26,032 nucleotides of DNA. It comes from a virus (Duplodnaviria; Heunggongvirae; Uroviricota; Caudoviricetes). The stretch is from positions 1-26,032 of the IMG/VR virus record IMGVR_UViG_2565956624_000001; one strand, 5' to 3'. Shown piece by piece: positions 849-6,512 of the stretch. The position numbers were made by a program, and so were the translations under genes. Position 1 is the first letter of the stretch; each line of letters begins with the position of its first letter. The notes under the pieces were generated by a model, which saw only the letters and a program-made list of their open reading frames with translations, was not told where the DNA came from and ran no database searches.

Positions 849-1086
849 ACCTTACAAAATCCGGTGTAAAGGTGAATATCCTGGCTTTACGGTTGGTTGC
901 GAATACCTGGGCCACATTGGGTACGGCCCTTTCGGTGAATTAGGTATGAATACGCTGGACGACGACGGCGACAGCAGGACGCTTGATCTTGATACGGATG
1001 ACTTTGAATATATCCCGCCAGTGACTTACCGCGTAGTTGATGAGTTCATGGCTGAACATGAAGACGAGGACGATGATTATGATTGA
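832..1086 (+). CDS. hypothetical acidic protein
   Basis: Track ORF 826-1086; TTG at 832 lies 7 nt after GGAGGGG. C-terminus is strongly acidic (EHEDEDDDYD). Start uncertain. Confidence 0.4.
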   Translation: MSASNKPYKIRCKGEYPGFTVGCEYLGHIGYGPFGELGMNTLDDDGDSRTLDLDTDDFEYIPPVTYRVVDEFMAEHEDEDDDYD

Positions 1087-1276
1087 ATGTCTTATTATTG
1101 CGGTAGTTATAATTTACCTGGCTGGCGTCATTTTAATGGGCGCTTTTCAGAAAGCTGTTGATAGTGACGGCATTATTTGGTTCGAGCTAGTCTTCTGGCC
1201 TTTCATTACGATATACGCATTCAGTGACGCTATGCGTATTAACATCATGCGAGCCATTAAGGAGCGCAAGAAATGA
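1073..1276 (+). CDS. small predicted membrane protein
   Basis: Track ORF 1037-1276; in-frame ATG at 1073 and 1079. Two hydrophobic stretches (IIAVVIIYLAGVILMGAF, FELVFWPFITIYAF). Stop overlaps the next start (ATGA). Confidence 0.45.
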   Translation: MIMIECLIIAVVIIYLAGVILMGAFQKAVDSDGIIWFELVFWPFITIYAFSDAMRINIMRAIKERKK

Positions 1277-1455
1277 TTGAAGATGGCATATACGCGGCAA
1301 CAGTAGTTGACGGGTTGTTTTACCGCGTAGAAGGTGATGATATTCGCATCCGCGTTGGCTGTGGTGAGTGGGTAGAGCCAATCATTGAGACGACGCGAGA
1401 AACAATTAAAATATTTCTTGATGCTGGTGAACTGGTAAAGGTTAGCGACCTATGA
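1273..1455 (+). CDS. hypothetical small protein, paralog 1 of a tandem pair
   Basis: ATG 1273 with GGAG 9 nt upstream; 60 aa; shares an N-terminal IEDGIY motif with the next ORF. Confidence 0.5.
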   Translation: MIEDGIYAATVVDGLFYRVEGDDIRIRVGCGEWVEPIIETTRETIKIFLDAGELVKVSDL

Positions 1456-1628
1456 ACGAGATCGAAGATGGCATCTATTTGCATAAGGTATTTGACATCG
1501 CCTATTTGGTAAGAGGCGAAGAGGTGATGATAAGGAATGAAGATGTTCCTTATTGGGAATTAAGCGACATGGATCGCGAACACATGCAAACATTGCTTGA
1601 TAACGGACTGATATACAGAACTGCGTAA
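1452..1628 (+). CDS. hypothetical small protein, paralog 2 of a tandem pair
   Basis: Hand-translated ORF absent from the track (58 aa, below its cutoff): MNEIEDGIYLHKVFDIAYLVRGEEVMIRNEDVPYWELSDMDREHMQTLLDNGLIYRTA. ATG overlaps the previous stop (ATGA). Confidence 0.4.
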   Translation: MNEIEDGIYLHKVFDIAYLVRGEEVMIRNEDVPYWELSDMDREHMQTLLDNGLIYRTA

Positions 1629-1649
1629 AGCCGTATTTGTGGGGGCGGT

Positions 1650-1877
1650 ATGGAGGAAATGATTTTGCTGTCATTAATATGGCATCGGTTCGGAAGTGAA
1701 AAAGGTTACTCGCCTGCTTGCTGGCTTGATAGTAAAAGCGGAAAGGAGTATCAAAACGAGTGCGAATTTAGAAGGGAGTGGCGAGGCGGTAAGGAAGTGC
1801 AAGGATATTTTGCACCTAAACACGTCGCCGCCAAATACAAAGAATGGCTTGTTCGTTTGCTTGGCCCTTATCGTTAA
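1650..1877 (+). CDS. hypothetical protein
   Basis: Track ORF; ATG follows the upstream stop after a G-rich stretch. An overlapping alternative frame (1696-1911, GTG start) cannot be excluded. Confidence 0.35.
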   Translation: MEEMILLSLIWHRFGSEKGYSPACWLDSKSGKEYQNECEFRREWRGGKEVQGYFAPKHVAAKYKEWLVRLLGPYR

Positions 1878-1942
1878 AGCCGTATTTGTTGGTCGAAAAC
1901 AAACAGATTAAAATATTACCTAACAATGCGAAACTGTAACTA

Positions 1943-1964
1943 CCCGGCCCCGTGCCGGGTTTTT
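1943..1964 (+). terminator. intrinsic terminator immediately upstream of the holin gene (6S/tR'-like position)
   Basis: CCCGGC-CCCGT-GCCGGG hairpin followed by TTTTT. Confidence 0.6.
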
Positions 1965-1984
1965 GCTTTGTTGGAGGTAAATCT

Positions 1985-2185
1985 ATGTTCGACAGAATAC
2001 GGGCGGCGTGCGCTTATGTTACTGGGACCGTAACCGCTTTTTTCGGTGCGATAACCATAAATGACGTTGCCGTCTTCGTGGGTATCCTATCAACCATTGG
2101 CACATTTGCCGTTAATTATTACTTTAAATCACAGGAGAACAAGCGAGCGCAAGAGGAACACGACGCGCGAATGGGGAATAAGTAA
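1985..2185 (+). CDS. holin, class II / pinholin-like
   Basis: ATG 1985 with GGAGGT 6 nt upstream; 66 aa; two hydrophobic segments and a charged C-terminal tail ([19 protein letters not shown]); sits directly before the endolysin. Resembles phage 21 S-type holins from memory. Confidence 0.7.
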
Positions 2186-2186
2186 C

Positions 2187-2678
2187 ATGATTAGCCAATC
2201 GCTGAAAAACAAAATTGTTGCGGCGGCGGCTGGTGGGGCGATCGCTATTGCGGCGGTGATGATTAAGCCATTAGAGGGCGTGGAATACGATCCTTATCGT
2301 GATGTTGTTGGTGTATGGACTGTTTGCTATGGTCACACCGGAAAAGACATCATGTTGGGCAAGACTTACACGCAATCAGAATGCGATGCTTTGTTAAATA
2401 AAGATCTACACAAGACCGCAAAAGCGATTGACCCATATATCAAAGTCGAAGTATCAGATTTTACCCGCGCAGCACTTTATTCATTCGCCTATAACGTAGG
2501 CGCAACCAACTTCAAAACATCAACCTTATTAAAGCTACTCAATGACGGCAAGAAATCAGAAGCGTGCGCACAGCTTAAACGCTGGGTATACGCTGGCGGT
2601 AAGAAGTGGCAAGGCCTGGTAAACCGCCGTGATGTTGAATATGCCGTTTGCGAATGGGGGGAAACGTGGACAAGGTGA
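2187..2678 (+). CDS. SAR endolysin (T4-lysozyme-like, phage 21 R / P1 Lyz type)
   Basis: ATG 2187 two nt after the holin stop. Gly/Ala-rich N-terminal signal-anchor ([18 protein letters not shown]) followed by [23 protein letters not shown]...[11 protein letters not shown], remembered as close to phage 21 R. Confidence 0.88.
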
Positions 2679-3136
2679 AGGCGTTAATTATCGCCGCTGT
2701 TGTTTGCATCATTGCCAGCCTTACAGCCGTAACATGCCATTACCAGAGTGAGGCGACAAGGTTACAGGAAGAATTAACGACCACGCAAGGCGCACTGAAA
2801 ACAGCAAGTAACACTATTCAGCAGATGAAGGAGCGAAACGCCGAACTGTCAAAACTTGATAAGAGGTATCACGATGAGATTAAAGCTATCAGATCTGACA
2901 TTGCCGATCTGCGCACTGGCATTGATAACGGCACTATCAGGCTGCGCGTCAACGCAATACCCGTGCGAGTGTCCGACTCCGCAGGAACCGCCAGCCGCAT
3001 TGATGGAGCCACCTGCCAACTCTCTAAATCAGCTGAATCAGCTTATCTATCCCTCAGAGAACAACTAAAAACGAAAGACGCACAGATCACTGGCCTACAG
3101 GACTACATCAAAACGCAGTGCTTACGCAAAGAATAA
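2648..3136 (+). CDS. Rz-like i-spanin
   Basis: N-terminal TM ([17 protein letters not shown]) then coiled-coil periplasmic domain; overlaps the endolysin 3' end; contains the embedded Rz1 frame. Exact start (2648, 2654 or later) uncertain. Confidence 0.75.
2874..3068 (+). CDS. Rz1-like o-spanin (lipoprotein) embedded in Rz in the +1 frame
   Basis: ATG 2874 with AAGAGG 7 nt upstream; lipobox LSGC; proline-rich mature part ([18 protein letters not shown]); fully nested in Rz. Confidence 0.75.
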   Translation: MRLKLSDLTLPICALALITALSGCASTQYPCECPTPQEPPAALMEPPANSLNQLNQLIYPSENN

Positions 3137-3397
3137 CAGCGCGTGGACGTGTCGCCGTTTCCGCCAGCCAGCCATAACCGGGCCAATCCTTCCCGCGAGC
3201 GACGGCGGAATAGTCAAAAACACGTAATACCGGATCAACAGTCCCATTAACAGGTCGGCGCTACCTGGGTAGAAGAAAGCGCCCACTTTATAAAATCCCG
3301 GAAACGGTACTCACGAAGCGCCGTTTTCAGTGTTTTATATCATTCCTGGCAATGGATAAACAGGAAGTAAAAGCAAACCAGACAGGAGATTATTCTG

Positions 3398-3982
3398 ATG
3401 GCTAAGGGTAAAGGCTTAAAATTGCCTCACTTCAAGATCCCGCTCTTTGAGCATACAACCGTTTTCTTTTGCCCGACCCGCGAGATGTTTTATGAATTTT
3501 GCGAAAAGGCAGGAATTCCGATCGAACCTGATTTCGAACTGGCAGGAGGATTGACGCTTACTTGCACTGGCGAGAAAGGCGGTAACTTCTACGTGATCGC
3601 AGTATTCGACAATGAGTTAGGAACGCTGGTACATGAAGCGGCGCACACGACATTTCACGTTCTAAGTGATGTGGGCGTCGTAGCGACCACTGATCCCAGC
3701 CATCCGGCAAACGAGACTTACGCTTACATGGTAGGCCGTATCTTTGACGCATTCTTCCCCATCCTGGCGGAATCAAATGAAGCACAGGTGGCAGCAATGC
3801 AGGCCGCTGAAGTCGTAGAGAAGGCATTAGAGCAGGCAGAGAAGGCTACTGATGCAGCAGAGCAGGCAGTAGAGCAGGCAGAGGAGCCGAAAGAAGAGAA
3901 AAAACCAGCTAAGAAAGGCAAACGTAAGCCTAAAGCAAAAGATGCGTATGTGCCGCGTGTGATGAGCTTTAAACGAGGCTAA
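3398..3982 (+). CDS. HExxH-motif protein (putative zinc-metallopeptidase-like) with lysine-rich basic C-terminal tail
   Basis: ATG 3398 with AGGAG upstream; 194 aa; motif LVHEAAHTTFHV; C-terminal EQAEKATDAAEQAVEQAEEPKEEKKPAKKGKRKPKAK. Confidence 0.6.
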   Translation: MAKGKGLKLPHFKIPLFEHTTVFFCPTREMFYEFCEKAGIPIEPDFELAGGLTLTCTGEKGGNFYVIAVFDNELGTLVHEAAHTTFHVLSDVGVVATTDPSHPANETYAYMVGRIFDAFFPILAESNEAQVAAMQAAEVVEKALEQAEKATDAAEQAVEQAEEPKEEKKPAKKGKRKPKAKDAYVPRVMSFKRG

Positions 3983-3984
3983 TT

Positions 3985-4059
3985 ATGATTGACCCGCTCA
4001 TTACCCTTTCTGCCTGCGTCGCTGTATGGCTGGCGATCATGATATTCATTGAAAGCTGA
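3985..4059 (+). CDS. mini-ORF 1, hydrophobic peptide (24 aa) MIDPLITLSACVAVWLAIMIFIES
   Basis: Hand-translated; ATG with GAGG 7 nt upstream; starts 3 nt after the 3982 stop. Confidence 0.3.
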   Translation: MIDPLITLSACVAVWLAIMIFIES

Positions 4060-4069
4060 AGGTGTTCAC

Positions 4070-4150
4070 ATGAACGCATACGAAATGCTATTGCTGGTGG
4101 CTGTAGTTGTAGTCATTGCCGTTGACGTATACCGGGAGTTTAAAAAATGA
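4070..4150 (+). CDS. mini-ORF 2, hydrophobic peptide (26 aa) MNAYEMLLLVAVVVVIAVDVYREFKK
   Basis: Hand-translated; GAAGGTG upstream of the ATG; stop overlaps the next start (ATGA). Confidence 0.3.
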   Translation: MNAYEMLLLVAVVVVIAVDVYREFKK

Positions 4151-4215
4151 AATGGCTTGATTTCTTTTTCCTGATCGTTGCGATTGTTCTTACCATGACC
4201 GCGCTGACTCAATAG
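4147..4215 (+). CDS. mini-ORF 3, hydrophobic peptide (22 aa) MKWLDFFFLIVAIVLTMTALTQ
   Basis: Hand-translated; translationally coupled to mini-ORF 2. Confidence 0.3.
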   Translation: MKWLDFFFLIVAIVLTMTALTQ

Positions 4216-4223
4216 GTGAATAT

Positions 4224-4298
4224 ATGGAAACTATCGAAGCTGTATTATTCGTATGTATCGCGGCGGTTGTTATTGTGGGGTTTATTATCAATGCCTGA
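4224..4298 (+). CDS. mini-ORF 4, hydrophobic peptide (24 aa) METIEAVLFVCIAAVVIVGFIINA
   Basis: Hand-translated; AGGTGA upstream of the ATG. Confidence 0.3.
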   Translation: METIEAVLFVCIAAVVIVGFIINA

Positions 4299-4359
4299 CA
4301 GTGATTTCTTAATCATGGCTACATGCACGTTGTTAGTAGTTATCGTTTTCTTCGCATAA
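4291..4359 (+). CDS. mini-ORF 5, hydrophobic peptide (22 aa) MPDSDFLIMATCTLLVVIVFFA
   Basis: Hand-translated; start overlaps the mini-ORF 4 stop (ATGCCTGA). An internal ATG at 4315 would give a 14-aa version. Confidence 0.25.
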   Translation: MPDSDFLIMATCTLLVVIVFFA

Positions 4360-4369
4360 AGGGTAAACA

Positions 4370-4456
4370 ATGAAAGAGCTATTCGACTGGTTGGAAGTAT
4401 TAACATACTGCGCAACATTAATTGCGTGTTTATATATTCTGTGCAAATGGTTTTGA
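4370..4456 (+). CDS. mini-ORF 6, hydrophobic peptide (28 aa) MKELFDWLEVLTYCATLIACLYILCKWF
   Basis: Hand-translated; AAGGGT upstream; stop lies 11 nt before the terminase small-subunit ATG. Confidence 0.3.
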   Translation: MKELFDWLEVLTYCATLIACLYILCKWF

Positions 4457-4467
4457 GAGGTGAAATT

Positions 4468-4953
4468 ATGGCCCGCACTAAAAAGGCAAAGGCTGACGAT
4501 AAAAAGCCAGCCGCTAAAAAGGTGGGCCGTCCGCATGGTTATACCGAAGAAAAAGCATTAGAAATCTGTGAACTGGTGGCGGATGGTCAGAGTATTAATA
4601 AAATTTCGAAAATGCCTGGTATGCCTACCCGTTCCACAATCCTGAAATGGTTTAGGGATGTACCGGAATTCTCGATCATGTACGCGCGCGCGAAGGAGAT
4701 CGGCTTCGAGGTATTGGCTGATGAAATCATCGATCTGGCTGATGCAGCAGAGAACGCAGATAAAGATCAGTTGCGACGCCACCAACTAATGATTGAAACG
4801 CGCAAGTGGCTACTGGCAAAACTTCAGCCGCGCAAATACGGCGAACGCGTCACACAGGAGATCGTCGGCAACAAGGAAGAAGCGCCCGTTCAGGTTGAAG
4901 TCACGAAAGAAGAGATCGCCCGCATCGTCCAGGAAGTAGAAGACGAGGTGTGA
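4468..4953 (+). CDS. terminase small subunit
   Basis: ATG 4468 with GAGAGGTGA upstream; basic N-terminus with an HTH-like segment (GQSINKISKMPGMPTRSTILKWF); directly upstream of and overlapping the large subunit. Confidence 0.75.
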   Translation: MARTKKAKADDKKPAAKKVGRPHGYTEEKALEICELVADGQSINKISKMPGMPTRSTILKWFRDVPEFSIMYARAKEIGFEVLADEIIDLADAAENADKDQLRRHQLMIETRKWLLAKLQPRKYGERVTQEIVGNKEEAPVQVEVTKEEIARIVQEVEDEV

Positions 4954-4955
4954 TT

Positions 4956-6434
4956 ATGTTGACAATCAAAGAACGAGTTATTCAGTCCAAATGTGAAAAC
5001 GATGGCCTGTTTTTCAACCGCTATTTCTACAAGCAAGCAAACGGTACGAAGATGTTTGTCTCAGGTCATCACATAGCTATCCGCGATGCACTACAACGCG
5101 TTATTAATGGTGAGATAACCCGCCTCATCATTAACATTCCCCCAGGGTACGGTAAAACCATGATCGCTACCATCAACATGATGGCGCGGTCCCTCGCAAT
5201 AAATCCCCGCACAAGATTCCTTCACGTTTCCTATTCCAACAACCTGGCGTTACTCAATTCCTCGACTGTAAGAAACATGATCTGTACGCCTGACTATCAG
5301 GCAATGTGGCCCATGAAGATCCGCAACGATGCCAACTCGAAATCGATGTGGTGGACTGAATACGGTGGCGGCGTGTATGCAACGTCATCGCTGGGCCAGG
5401 TAACTGGGTTCCGTGCTGGGTATATGGAGCCGGGATTTAACGGCGCGTTAATCATCGACGACCCATTAAAACCCGCTGACGCTTACTCTGACGTGGTGAG
5501 AAAGCAGGTAAACACAAACTATAACGACACACTTGCTTCACGTCTGGCAGTGCAAACAACGCCTGTTATCGTCATCATGCAGCGCATCCACTACGATGAT
5601 TTGTCCGGCTACCTGTTACGAGGTGGAAGCGGTGAGAAGTGGTATCACCTTAACCTGCCAGTGAAGATCGACAATAGCGTTGACTACAGGGATTTGTACC
5701 CTGAAAACGAGTTCGCAATACCCATTCCTCACAACCTGCCTGATGGATGGCTGTGGCCTAAAAAGCACAATGACATTCATGAAGCTGGACTGAAAGCACA
5801 CAGGCGGTCATTCGAGGCCCAGTACATGCAGCGCCCGCGTAAATTCGACGAAGAGGGTGCATTGTGGACTGAAGCCATGATAACCGCAGCGCACCGGATG
5901 CAGATAACGCAGGACAAGATCCGCACGGTAATAGCTATCGACCCGGCTACAACATCATCGGAAGAATCGGACGAAACGGGGATCGTTGCATGTTCCGCTT
6001 ACGGTGGCGGTAAAAATGCTCAGTATTCTGTTGATGGCGACTACTCAGGCCGTATGTCTCCTAACGACTGGGCGCAGGCATCAATGAACGCCTACAACAT
6101 CCATGAAGCTGACGCGATAGTTATCGAAACAAACCAGGGCGGCGAAATGGCAGAGGCCACGCTACGTAACGCCGGATTCAAAGGCCGCATTGTTAAGGTG
6201 CACGCAAGCAAGGGTAAATTCGCCCGCGCCGAGCCAATATCGGCACTGTATGCACAGGGAAGGGTGGCCCACACAGGCAGCCTGTACACGCTGGAAAATC
6301 AAATGATGGAATACGTTCCAGCTACCGCTAAAAAATCACCTGACCGCCTCGACGCAATGGTATGGGGTATCACTGAATTAAGCCAGCCGCAGGCAATGGG
6401 CCTCATGTTACCTAAGCGCCTGCGCGGATTTTAA
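4956..6434 (+). CDS. terminase large subunit (ATPase/nuclease)
   Basis: Walker A-like PPGYGKT and DE-type IIDDPLK motifs; about 490 aa; position between small terminase and portal. ATG 4956 has GAGG 8 nt upstream; the track start at 4950 is GTG. Confidence 0.88.
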   Translation: MLTIKERVIQSKCENDGLFFNRYFYKQANGTKMFVSGHHIAIRDALQRVINGEITRLIINIPPGYGKTMIATINMMARSLAINPRTRFLHVSYSNNLALLNSSTVRNMICTPDYQAMWPMKIRNDANSKSMWWTEYGGGVYATSSLGQVTGFRAGYMEPGFNGALIIDDPLKPADAYSDVVRKQVNTNYNDTLASRLAVQTTPVIVIMQRIHYDDLSGYLLRGGSGEKWYHLNLPVKIDNSVDYRDLYPENEFAIPIPHNLPDGWLWPKKHNDIHEAGLKAHRRSFEAQYMQRPRKFDEEGALWTEAMITAAHRMQITQDKIRTVIAIDPATTSSEESDETGIVACSAYGGGKNAQYSVDGDYSGRMSPNDWAQASMNAYNIHEADAIVIETNQGGEMAEATLRNAGFKGRIVKVHASKGKFARAEPISALYAQGRVAHTGSLYTLENQMMEYVPATAKKSPDRLDAMVWGITELSQPQAMGLMLPKRLRGF

Positions 6435-6465
6435 AATCTGCCTCACAATCACTCACTAATTTTTC

Positions 6466-6490
6466 TATTTTTCGCGTAGCAACGCGTAAA
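6466..6490 (+). promoter_or_regulatory. conserved motif copy 1: TATTTTT-CGCGTA-GCAA-CGCGTA-AA, upstream of the portal gene
   Basis: Near-identical to the copy at 18805-18829; CGCGTA direct repeat with 10-bp centre spacing. Confidence 0.4.
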
Positions 6491-6512
6491 CATGTATTCA
6501 GGAGTAAACATT

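Follow-up and report, generated by a model that had tools for sequence, protein, structure and literature searches.

A variable tandem array of probable membrane-peptide mini-genes next to the terminase genes of an mEp021-like coliphage

In phage and bacterial proteomes, no part is charted as poorly as the small hydrophobic proteins, and a number of described systems resemble, in one respect or another, the locus analysed here. In the case of Escherichia coli, the small inner-membrane proteins of the Hemm/Storz class (AcrZ, MgtS, MgrB, KdpF, CydX and YohP; at most 50 aa) consist of a single hydrophobic helix; together with the 'cryptic microproteome' of Enterobacteriaceae (PMC11188072), they possess their own SD motif and ATG, are under purifying selection and are missed by standard gene callers, and they are solitary, scattered and mostly chromosomal. 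Tandem type I toxins (ibsA-E/sib and ldrA-D/rdl; also ShoB, DinQ and TisB) are hydrophobic membrane peptides of 18-35 aa, present as several tandem, near-identical copies, each under a promoter of its own and provided with a structured leader and an antisense RNA. Holins, pinholins and antiholins (phage 21 S68/S71; lambda S105/S107) are small late phage membrane proteins of 60-130 residues; one transmembrane domain (TMD) of the phage 21 pinholin is enough for hole formation, and depolarisation of the membrane is what sets off pinholin and SAR-endolysin systems. The psm-alpha operon of Staphylococcus aureus, like the multi-peptide operons for leaderless bacteriocins (aureocin A70, for instance), carries about four consecutive cistrons of 20-30 codons, with SDs of their own, on one transcript. 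Finally, the coat proteins of Pf3 and M13, filamentous-phage virion proteins of 44-50 aa, are short and span the membrane once; their N-tail is acidic and their C-tail basic, which implies N-out/C-in insertion by a YidC-type, pmf-assisted route.

In this study, we analysed a 26,032-nt stretch of phage DNA (the window), in which a sequence-only reading had pointed to six same-strand mini-ORFs, each beginning with ATG and most of them accompanied by an RBS-like motif. All six were found on the plus strand at 3985-4456; they encode 22-28 aa, and each has an SD-like motif. Comparison with related genomes makes it very probable that the six are genuine protein-coding mini-genes, arrayed in the genome of a temperate coliphage of the mEp021-like (mEpimmI) type. 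Small phage membrane proteins are a known kind, to which such an array adds a variation. The peptides are like the E. coli small inner-membrane proteins in size and in their single hydrophobic helix, and they share with these and with the cryptic microproteome a start and ribosome-binding site of their own, one hydrophobic segment, purifying selection and absence from standard gene calls; transmembrane contacts with larger proteins are plausible for both. They have, however, no sequence similarity to the E. coli proteins, and stand 2-13 head to tail, as reshuffled cassettes of one phage operon. Like holins, the array peptides would be small phage membrane proteins made late, and in the case of the phage 21 pinholin, the lineage peptides hp2, A2 and L resemble its hole-forming TMD2 in having a single predicted TMD, a predicted N-out/C-in topology and a basic C-tail. 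Compared with holins, among which we counted the holin-like LysF1a/LysF1b of mycobacteriophages (PMC13056207), the array peptides are much shorter (22-28 aa), are not beside the endolysin, are multiple and vary in number, and match no holin or antiholin family in PHROGs, Pfam or NCBIfam. Unlike the near-identical copies of the tandem type I toxins, the cassettes of the array are mostly unrelated to one another, are chained and show no antisense signals. The array is also like the psm-alpha and leaderless bacteriocin operons in its succession of short cistrons with their own SDs; PSM-alpha peptides and leaderless bacteriocins are amphipathic, cationic and exported, whereas the array peptides are uniformly hydrophobic, with a low hydrophobic moment and acidic N-tails, and no exporter gene is found near the array. 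The Pf3 and M13 coats have no sequence relationship to the array peptides and serve only as a model of insertion.

Table 1. Features of the array and of its neighbourhood in the window, with the conservation of the six mini-genes among related loci (dN/dS refers to the named frame; other values are those of the other plus-strand frames).
Feature	Coordinates	Strand	Description	Conservation
Lysis cassette	1985-3136	+	complete, canonical; Pfam PF16080, PF00959, PF03245, PF06085	
Class II holin	1985-2185	+	PF16080 match, E=4e-15	
Endolysin (lysozyme)	2187-2678	+	N-terminus hydrophobic, Gly/Ala-rich, SAR-like	
Rz	2648-3136	+	part of lysis cassette	
Rz1	2856-3068	+	embedded in Rz	
gp194	3398-3982	+	upstream cistron; 194 aa; invariant HExxH motif; matches phrog_1365 (unknown function)	
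hp1	3985-4059	+	24 aa, MIDPLITLSACVAVWLAIMIFIES; SD motif GAGG 6 nt 5' of ATG	intact in 51/51 carrier loci; dN/dS 0.29 (0.78 and 1.21); 17 synonymous, 11 nonsynonymous alleles, P=1.6e-4
hp2	4070-4150	+	26 aa, MNAYEMLLLVAVVVVIAVDVYREFKK; C-tail basic; SD motif AAGGTG	ATG kept and no internal stop in 52/52 loci; dN/dS 0.22; P=3.9e-5
hp3	4147-4215	+	22 aa, MKWLDFFFLIVAIVLTMTALTQ; start overlaps hp2 stop (ATGA)	ATG in 50/50 loci; dN/dS 0.12 (1.63 and 3.21); P=7.5e-4
hp4	4224-4298	+	24 aa, METIEAVLFVCIAAVVIVGFIINA; SD motif TAGGTG	intact in 31/31 carrier loci; dN/dS 0.28; P=1.5e-3
hp5	4291-4359	+	22 aa, MPDSDFLIMATCTLLVVIVFFA; 8-nt overlap with hp4 end (ATGCCTGA)	ATG in 33/37 loci, ACG in 4/37; dN/dS 0.26; P=0.06 (marginal, alone among the six)
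hp6	4370-4456	+	28 aa, MKELFDWLEVLTYCATLIACLYILCKWF; stop TGA abuts/overlaps terS SD motif GAGGTG	dN/dS 0.24; P=0.027
terS	4468-4953	+	Sf6-type small terminase subunit; Pfam PF20901, E=2.9e-36; phrog_1482	
terL	4950-6434	+	GTGA overlap with terS	

Of the 485 nt from the upstream stop (3982) to the terS ATG (4468), 444 belong to the mini-ORFs, and T occupies 54% of the second codon positions in the array. The tight packing described earlier, with gaps of 8-11 nt and overlaps at 4147 and 4291, was confirmed: the non-overlapping gaps measure 10, 8, 10 and 11 nt, and the ATGA overlap of hp2 and hp3 suggests translational coupling. At all six ATG starts, complementarity to the anti-SD amounts to -3.7 to -6.9 kcal/mol. 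The chain of cistrons runs unbroken from gp194 through hp1 to hp6, terS and terL, with gaps of -8 to +11 nt. The stop of gp194, which we regard as context outside the array, lies 2 nt 5' of the hp1 ATG (TAATTATG), and this gene is found in all related loci with a readable upstream region. The location initially given, between the lysis cassette and the terminase, is right on the terS side, with terS, terL and portal directly 3' of the array, but on the other side gp194 separates the array from the lysis cassette proper; between endolysin and array lie Rz/Rz1, a 260-nt spacer, in which the GenBank record of mEp021 annotates a terminator, and gp194. No sigma-70-like promoter was found on the plus strand from 1412 to 6500. 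The array sits in a rightward late gene block and, because the gaps are small and each cistron has its own SD, it would most simply be translated from a late message common to the lysis and packaging genes.

The coding character of the interval was assessed against random sequence and against 56 related phage and prophage loci, with architecture counts made on 54 of them. The arrangement had been considered unlikely for random sequence, and indeed none of 2000 dinucleotide-preserving shuffles of the interval reached six hydrophobic mini-ORFs (they averaged 0.63 and never exceeded 4), while controls read on both strands (phage lambda, T7, four distant loci and the remainder of the window) hold at most two per 500 nt. 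Among homologous cassettes, which were compared in up to 54 loci, one match in 277 is gapped, frame-breaking indels are absent, and starts and stops are kept. In the named frames dN/dS is 0.12-0.29, as against 0.55-3.2 in the other plus-strand frames, with 123 synonymous alleles observed versus 69.6 expected (P=5e-13) and 64, 40 and 141 variable alleles at codon positions 1, 2 and 3, respectively. Frame conservation and codon-level constraint in relatives, the signs by which the sequence-only reading proposed to recognize real genes, are therefore both present, the bias to synonymous sites and third positions being confined to the named frames. Across the lineage, SD complementarity has a median of -4.4 kcal/mol at called starts versus -2.15 kcal/mol at other ATGs of the same intervals (P=5e-33), 92% of the inter-cistron gaps do not exceed 15 nt, and median coding coverage is 92%. 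The weakest of the six mini-genes is hp5.

Among the 56 relatives, phages and prophages, the corresponding interval ranges in length from 214 to 1154 nt and contains 2-13 mini-genes, taken from a pool of about 20 peptide families whose order is fixed and whose presence is variable. A single colinear order is maintained throughout the 38 architectures seen among 54 loci, and cassette breakpoints lie at shared cistron heads, ATGAAY..TACGA. Among 19 locus pairs whose terS DNA is at least 99.5% identical, only 10 share their architecture. Families are gained and lost cassette by cassette, the array of the window being one sample of the lineage-wide pool. The near-universal cassettes are hp1, hp2, hp3 and hp6, the last of which always closes the array (53 of 54 loci, and also L059 and L060). 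The idea that the peptides form a diversified family is borne out as regards their shared architecture and some paralogous families of the lineage (hp3 with H1 and H2, z 4.4-4.6; hp2 with G, M and R), but among the six peptides of the window no sequence relationship is detectable. Natural arrays of only two or three cassettes exist (L060, L026), and since these phages keep the same type of lysis cassette, most cassettes cannot be required for lysis. In searches with the concatenated peptides by tblastn, only seven mEpimmI phages matched among 50,697 phage records; a degenerate DNA pattern at the amino-acid level of hp1 matched 35 IMG/VR contigs, all of the same group, and was absent from 100,044 species-representative genomes. 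As these matches all come from one group, the peptides are, within the collections searched, restricted to the mEp021-like phage lineage. No match to a known protein family rose above noise in PHROGs, Pfam or NCBIfam, and the peptide strings do not occur in the literature searched.

The peptides of the window follow a common plan, M-x3-D/E followed by 15-18 hydrophobic residues, that is, a short and usually acidic N-tail, a hydrophobic core without interruption and a C-end that is neutral or basic; in most families the N-tails are net negative and the C-tails neutral or positive. The cores consist of 15-18 uncharged residues, with Kyte-Doolittle means of 2.2-3.4 and a summed dGapp of -0.8 to -4.3 kcal/mol. 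This core length is at the short end for a membrane span. For hp1 to hp5, the hydrophobic moment is low (0.10-0.46) and mean hydrophobicity 2.7-3.4, hp6 being the most amphipathic and least hydrophobic of the six. GxxxG or small-xxx-small motifs can be read in the sequences of several families. The likeness to single-pass membrane micro-proteins suggested at the outset is supported by these uniformly hydrophobic cores and their negative summed insertion free energy, and the peptides are probably late-expressed, N-out/C-in micro-proteins of the inner membrane that act via helix-helix contacts.

How they might do so can be proposed in outline. Being too short for co-translational targeting, the micro-proteins would insert into the inner membrane post-translationally and, given their charge distribution, in an N-out/C-in orientation, as in the YidC-type insertion of the Pf3 coat. 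Once inserted, they would act by transmembrane helix-helix association, as accessories of the late membrane programme, made beside a class II (pinholin-type) holin and a SAR-like endolysin. Since they would be produced late beside a lysis system triggered by depolarisation, they may tune holin triggering or membrane energisation, and hence the timing of lysis, with hp1, hp2, hp3 and hp6 as a core that the variable cassettes would adjust. We hold this sequence of insertion, helix association and tuning of pinholin-type lysis or energisation as our leading but tentative reading, to which we give somewhat less than an even chance. Against a lysis role, the array lies outside the lysis cassette, where a canonical holin is already present, and against a role in timing, the fast turnover of presence and absence fits conflict-type accessory genes at least equally. 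If the peptides do tune lysis or membrane potential, the holin clock would gain a new layer.

Nearly as likely as the lysis-tuning reading is interference with membrane proteins of the host or of rivals, which we consider possible, if unlikely when taken by itself. Each micro-protein would bind the membrane domain of one particular target; examples would be transporters, proteases, defence effectors bound to the membrane, and a competing phage's holin or entry machinery. This mode of action is likened to that of the E. coli regulators AcrZ, MgtS and MgrB, and an arms race would account for the variability of the repertoire. The very fast presence/absence turnover, decoupled from the terS phylogeny, speaks for such a role, as do the existence of about 20 families with one common architecture, their helix-packing motifs of the GxxxG or small-xxx-small type, the lineage restriction and the individual dispensability of most cassettes, as judged from the natural arrays of two or three; hydrophobic micro-proteins of Enterobacteriaceae have, moreover, been proposed in general as modulators of larger proteins (PMC11188072). 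On the other hand, the four near-universal cassettes, under plain purifying selection, look like a core rather than a product of conflict, any exclusion role would be confined to the lytic cycle, as no promoter for expression from the prophage was found, and neither PADLOC nor other families gave a lead to a target. A more specific and rather improbable version sees in the array a combinatorial 'library' of interference peptides with one helix each. Every cassette would then be a minimal transmembrane decoy, jamming the membrane domain of one given host defence effector, of a membrane machine of the host, or of the holin or entry apparatus of a rival prophage, and cassettes would be swapped by recombination at the shared cistron heads to track these targets. 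Targeting of host or rival membrane proteins would make the locus a new type of conflict locus, and such a library would represent a counter-defence or competition island made wholly of micro-proteins of 20-47 aa, invisible to current annotation.

Two further proposals, both quite improbable, concern the genes 3' of the array. In the first, the mini-cistrons would be a ladder of translational coupling that delivers or attenuates ribosome flow into terS and terL, with the peptides as by-products. The overlaps and short gaps, unbroken from gp194 to terL, agree with this, and so does the stop of the near-universal, always terminal hp6 abutting the terS SD motif; yet a ladder leaves unexplained the purifying selection on amino acids in all six, and the membrane-span hydrophobicity kept across about 20 mostly unrelated families, and a number of rungs that goes from 2 to 13 while terS remains unchanged fits a tuned device poorly. 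In the second proposal, which we find just as hard to accept, the peptides would help, in association with the membrane, to assemble heads or to package DNA, like T4 gp40 or the small membrane proteins P20 and P22 of PRD1. It is true that terS, terL and portal adjoin the array and that hp6 is linked to terS in nearly all genomes, but, to our knowledge, an internal membrane is absent from tailed phages of this kind, and one would not expect cassette content to vary if the role were structural or in assembly. In addition, distant phages with an Sf6-type terS lack such an array (none was found 5' of terS in four contigs with 39-47% identity), and the paper on the mEpimmI phages, which does not discuss the interval, reports virion proteomics without mention of the peptides (PMC11893012).

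The reading as type I toxin-antitoxin-like modules, in which hydrophobic toxins would each be curbed by an antisense RNA, has in its favour a tandem arrangement similar to that of ibs/sib and ldr/rdl in E. coli. Ibs, ShoB, DinQ and TisB also resemble the array peptides in size and hydrophobicity. This reading is nevertheless largely refuted and very improbable: ten peptides gave no Pfam or NCBIfam match, at any cut-off, to toxin families (Hok/Gef, Ldr, Ibs, TisB, ShoB, DinQ, Fst and others), no Rfam antitoxin RNA was found, the array holds only three weak (9/12) minus-strand promoter-like sites and no minus-strand terminator, the whole region has fewer promoter-like sites than its shuffles (5 versus a mean of 11.2), and the tight coupling and good SD motifs, without long structured leaders, are the opposite of what type I toxin mRNAs show. 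Equally remote is a non-coding interval in which T-rich DNA would give rise to spurious hydrophobic ORFs; it might be a site for pac or terminase binding, a structured RNA, or what is left of a broken gene for a multi-pass membrane protein. In its favour, T-rich intergenic DNA is prone to chance hydrophobic ORFs (PMC11188072), and the interval has a lower GC content than its flanks (40-43% versus 48-52%, with T in excess of A) and bears no RefSeq annotation; this reading appears refuted by the comparative data, since same-dinucleotide shuffles never give six, purifying selection is frame-specific, SD motifs occur at called starts only, the ATG and the stop of each cassette persist through all 38 architectures, and pS values of up to 0.36 indicate that the DNA itself is not conserved. 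Nor does the interval show any sign of the structured element that the sequence-only reading had itself raised as an alternative: its RNA fold is less stable than 94 of 100 shuffles (z=+1.46), Rfam gives no matches, and repeats do not go beyond pairs of 12-24 nt at chance level.

Two other ways of reading the frames were discarded. In MagusPhagus, a stop cuts through the extended hp5, a 47-aa ORF starting with GTG (4216-4359), and the frame of hp4 itself is the one that carries the selection signal; on the minus strand, ORFs of 77, 48 and 67 aa in the window are open in only 1 of 6, 6 of 44 and 1 of 5 homologous stretches, respectively. A low dN/dS in one antisense frame is the artefact expected from shared wobble positions.

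The locus offers a dense natural series of 2-13 mini-genes, from about 20 families and under clear purifying selection, and existing isolates differ in cassette content, so that the function of single-helix micro-proteins becomes open to simple genetics. Standard annotation misses almost all of these genes. Gene callers with a 90-nt floor and PHANOTATE calls systematically misdescribe the region. RefSeq annotates nothing at the interval, leaving up to 1.08 kb of prophage blank, and of the six peptides only hp2 occurs as an exact sequence in a collection of 15 billion proteins, where it was called once. In GenBank records, the PHANOTATE calls in the region are fused or out of frame. The array is carried by phages mEp021, mEp010, mEp013, mEp044, mEp515 and mEp554, which grow on E. 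coli K-12.

The array of six mini-ORFs (hp1 to hp6) lying between gp194, the upstream cistron, and terS, the small terminase subunit gene, consists of real genes for membrane-span-like micro-proteins, which are modular and chained into the late gene block. Direct reading of positions 3700-4800, together with an ORF listing of 20 aa or more, confirmed the plus-strand ATG mini-ORFs noticed in the sequence-only reading, whose overall interpretation is also supported. The gp194 stop lies 2 nt before the hp1 ATG, hp2 and hp3 overlap in ATGA and hp4 and hp5 in ATGCCTGA, the non-overlapping mini-ORFs are separated by 8-11 nt, the hp6 stop abuts the Shine-Dalgarno (SD) motif of terS (GAGGTG), and terS overlaps terL, the large subunit gene, resulting in a cistron chain without interruption. 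All six starts are preceded, at normal spacing, by sequence complementary to the anti-SD (-3.7 to -6.9 kcal/mol), and T occupies 54% of the second codon positions of the array, a hydrophobic-coding signature.

Window coordinates of the mini-ORFs and of neighbouring features
Feature	Position	Strand	Description
79-aa ORF	1037-1276		two hydrophobic stretches (MMSSWLNMKTRTMIMIECLIIAVVIIYLAGVILMGAF...)
Terminator-like hairpin	1942-1960		strong; 7-bp stem, 6 G-C pairs, then T run
Class II holin	1985-2185		PF16080; weak similarity to phage 21 S family
Lysozyme	2187-2678		Gly/Ala-rich hydrophobic N-terminus
Rz + embedded Rz1	2648-3136
gp194	3398-3982		194 aa
hp1	3985-4059	+	ATG ORF, 24 aa
Inverted repeat	4001-4013, 4354-4366		13 nt
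hp2	4070-4150	+	ATG ORF, 26 aa
hp3	4147-4215	+	ATG ORF, 22 aa
hp4	4224-4298	+	ATG ORF, 24 aa
hp5	4291-4359	+	ATG ORF, 22 aa
hp6	4370-4456	+	ATG ORF, 28 aa
terS	4468 (ATG)		Sf6-type
terL	4950		Sf6-type

Such an arrangement had been considered unlikely for random sequence, and indeed 2000 shuffles of this 485-nt stretch that preserve dinucleotide content never produced six hydrophobic ATG mini-ORFs (mean 0.63, maximum 4), while the same detector gave two or fewer per 500 nt on both strands of the rest of the window, whole lambda, whole T7 and four distant phage loci. Nor is there support for a structured non-coding element: the RNA fold of the array is weaker than that of 94 of 100 shuffles (z = +1.46), an Rfam search of the interval gave no match with E of 1 or less, and no meaningful direct or inverted repeats were found in it. 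The cassettes, as we call the individual mini-ORFs, diverge strongly at synonymous sites (pS up to 0.36). Conservation thus does not extend to the DNA sequence itself, which counts against a packaging signal. That the array is non-coding DNA is thus hardly credible. The inverted repeat TTACCCTTTCTGC / GCATAAAGGGTAA (92% complementary), whose arms lie 340 nt apart, flank hp1 to hp5 and pair as the outermost stem in the minimum-free-energy structure, is probably fortuitous, given that the fold as a whole is less stable than those of shuffles. Minus-strand coding (window ORFs of 77, 48 and 67 aa) was rejected because these frames are not kept open in relatives; the low dN/dS in one antisense frame is a known artefact of shared wobble positions.

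For the comparison among relatives, which gave the decisive evidence, homologous intervals were gathered from seven phages, 47 IMG/VR contigs (via terS), two more divergent relatives (via gp194) and one RefSeq prophage; they span 214-1154 nt and hold 2-13 hydrophobic mini-ORFs each. The reading frames are conserved among these relatives, as homologues of the six cassettes align at the DNA level without gaps nearly throughout (one gapped match in 277) and the named frame has a pairwise Nei-Gojobori dN/dS of 0.12-0.29, vs 0.55-3.2 for the other two plus-strand frames. Starts and stops of hp1-hp4 are kept in all homologues except for one shifted hp2 stop and one hp3 stop placed one codon earlier, and the length of hp6 differs by one codon. 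Derived alleles, counted against the consensus, are synonymous in 123 cases, where 69.6 would be expected with kappa set to 3 (P = 5e-13), the excess by cassette having P = 1.6e-4 (hp1), 3.9e-5 (hp2), 7.5e-4 (hp3), 1.5e-3 (hp4), 0.06 (hp5, the weakest selection signal) and 0.027 (hp6); variable alleles at codon positions 1, 2 and 3 number 64, 40 and 141. Over all loci, SD complementarity is stronger at called starts than at the remaining ATGs within these intervals (medians -4.4 and -2.15 kcal/mol, P = 5e-33). The distance from a stop to the next start does not exceed 15 nt in 92% of cases and has modes of -4 and +8, and the median coding fraction is 92%. These patterns of frame, SD, spacing and selection are signatures that point to translated genes whose amino-acid sequence matters. 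The hp5 start is ACG in 4 of 37 loci, these four being from IMG/VR; hp5 may be decaying in some phages, or be translated via coupling from hp4. In the most divergent relative (L059, array 4537-5085), gp194 (4001-4534) is only 56% identical to that of the window, yet hp1 and hp6 encode exactly the peptide variants that are commonest in the lineage; the array is either more conserved than its neighbour or was exchanged via recombination.

Clustering gave about 20 peptide families, which follow one colinear order throughout (I/K/O, A2, hp1, M, G, J, hp2, H1, hp3, hp4, hp5, H2, L, hp6), with variable cassette presence leading to 38 architectures in 54 loci. The hp6 cassette occurs in 53 of the 54 loci as well as in the two divergent relatives, and wherever it occurs it closes the array; hp1, hp2 and hp3 are near-universal; the set of the window is unique among the 54. 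Alignment of the hp1-to-hp2 junction (window and mEp021) with two junctions of mEp010 and mEp044, hp1-to-G and J/G-to-hp2, placed the breakpoint at the head that the hp2 and G cistrons have in common (CATGAAY..TACGA), so that cassettes are gained and lost as whole units, probably through recombination between paralogous heads. Turnover is fast: of the 19 locus pairs whose terS DNA is at least 99.5% identical, only 10 agree in architecture, and of the 247 pairs at 90-99.5% identity none does. As regards the proposal of a diversified family, a segment-wise shuffle test supported paralogy within hp3/H1/H2, hp2/M/G/R, hp4/hp4b and A2/A3 (z 4-12), but not among the six peptides of the window.

A typical family starts with M-x3-[D/E], followed by 15-18 uncharged residues and a neutral or basic end, with net charges of 0 to -2 in the N-tails and 0 to +4 in the C-tails. 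At a length of 22-28 aa, a peptide would be released from the ribosome before its hydrophobic part has emerged, and insertion would have to be post-translational. The best 15-18-residue segments of the six peptides have summed dGapp of -0.8 to -4.3 kcal/mol (scale of Hessa et al. 2005), in agreement with the single-pass membrane reading, and their low hydrophobic moment indicates membrane-span-like rather than amphipathic helices, with the exception of hp6, which resembles TMD2 of the holin used as control. The positive-inside rule and the likeness to Pf3 coat suggest an N-out/C-in insertion.

The peptides have no family match in PHROG, Pfam or NCBIfam, holins and type I toxins included. They occur in 7 of 50,697 phage records, in 35 IMG/VR contigs that belong without exception to the same group, and in none of 100,044 species-representative genomes; five of the six are absent from a 15-billion-protein collection, and distant phages with the same terS type have no array. 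The peptides are thus confined to the mEp021-like lineage. In the E. coli GF66.2 prophage (NZ_CP172145.1, L061 858-1936), the 1,079-nt homologue is wholly unannotated by RefSeq/PGAP, and the GenBank phage records (PHANOTATE or Pharokka) do include some of the cassettes, but fused or in a wrong frame, as in mEp010_80, a 67-aa call from a TTG start that begins out of frame over cassette G and continues into J. Fremin et al. reportedly compiled a catalogue of small phage gene families in 2022. Hydrophobic micro-proteins under purifying selection are a known class in Enterobacteriaceae (PMC11188072), the description of the mEpimmI group does not discuss this interval (PMC11893012), no paper in the searched literature contains the peptide strings, and the searched sources describe no comparably dense, colinear, cassette-variable array. 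What we report is a lineage-specific, largely unannotated, combinatorially variable membrane mini-gene array, residing in culturable E. coli K-12 phages, where its function is directly testable.

The late block is of a typical kind and runs holin, lysozyme, Rz/Rz1, gp194, array, terS, terL, and as no plus-strand sigma-70-like promoter was found at 1412-6500, co-transcription with the late genes would be the simplest reading. We propose that the peptides would insert in the inner membrane and act via helix-helix association. We tentatively favour the view that the peptides play an accessory part in the late membrane programme, because this phage has a class II holin together with an endolysin bearing a SAR-like N-terminus, and lysis systems of this type fire when the membrane potential falls; in phage 21 S68, moreover, a single transmembrane domain can form pinholes. 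Against this view, the array lies outside the lysis cassette, the phage already has a canonical holin, and lysis genes of the same type are found in natural phages that carry no more than 2-3 cassettes. It is possible, and nearly as likely as the favoured reading, that the peptides interfere with membrane proteins of the host or of rivals, which would agree with the rapid turnover of cassettes. A pure translational-coupling ladder, contradicted by the amino-acid-level selection, is improbable, as are packaging or assembly helpers, and type I toxin-antitoxin modules are more doubtful still.

The window region is 85-91% identical to seven mEp021-group phages, and similar prophages are present in 35 of 5,426 complete E. 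coli genomes. These phages, named mEpimmI, are Nus-dependent, non-lambdoid temperate coliphages (PMC11893012); in this regard, the hairpin that precedes the holin start by about 25 nt is positioned like a late-operon terminator that would require read-through by antitermination. The 79-aa ORF upstream of the lysis cassette, which has no Pfam match, may be a further small membrane protein of the late region. Finally, HNH endonuclease genes lie at three insertion points among relatives, gp194/array (mEp013, L007 2033-2518), endolysin/Rz (L059 2752-3273) and terS/terL (L060 5250-5753), a pattern suggestive of mobile homing endonucleases that roam among the lysis and terminase genes.
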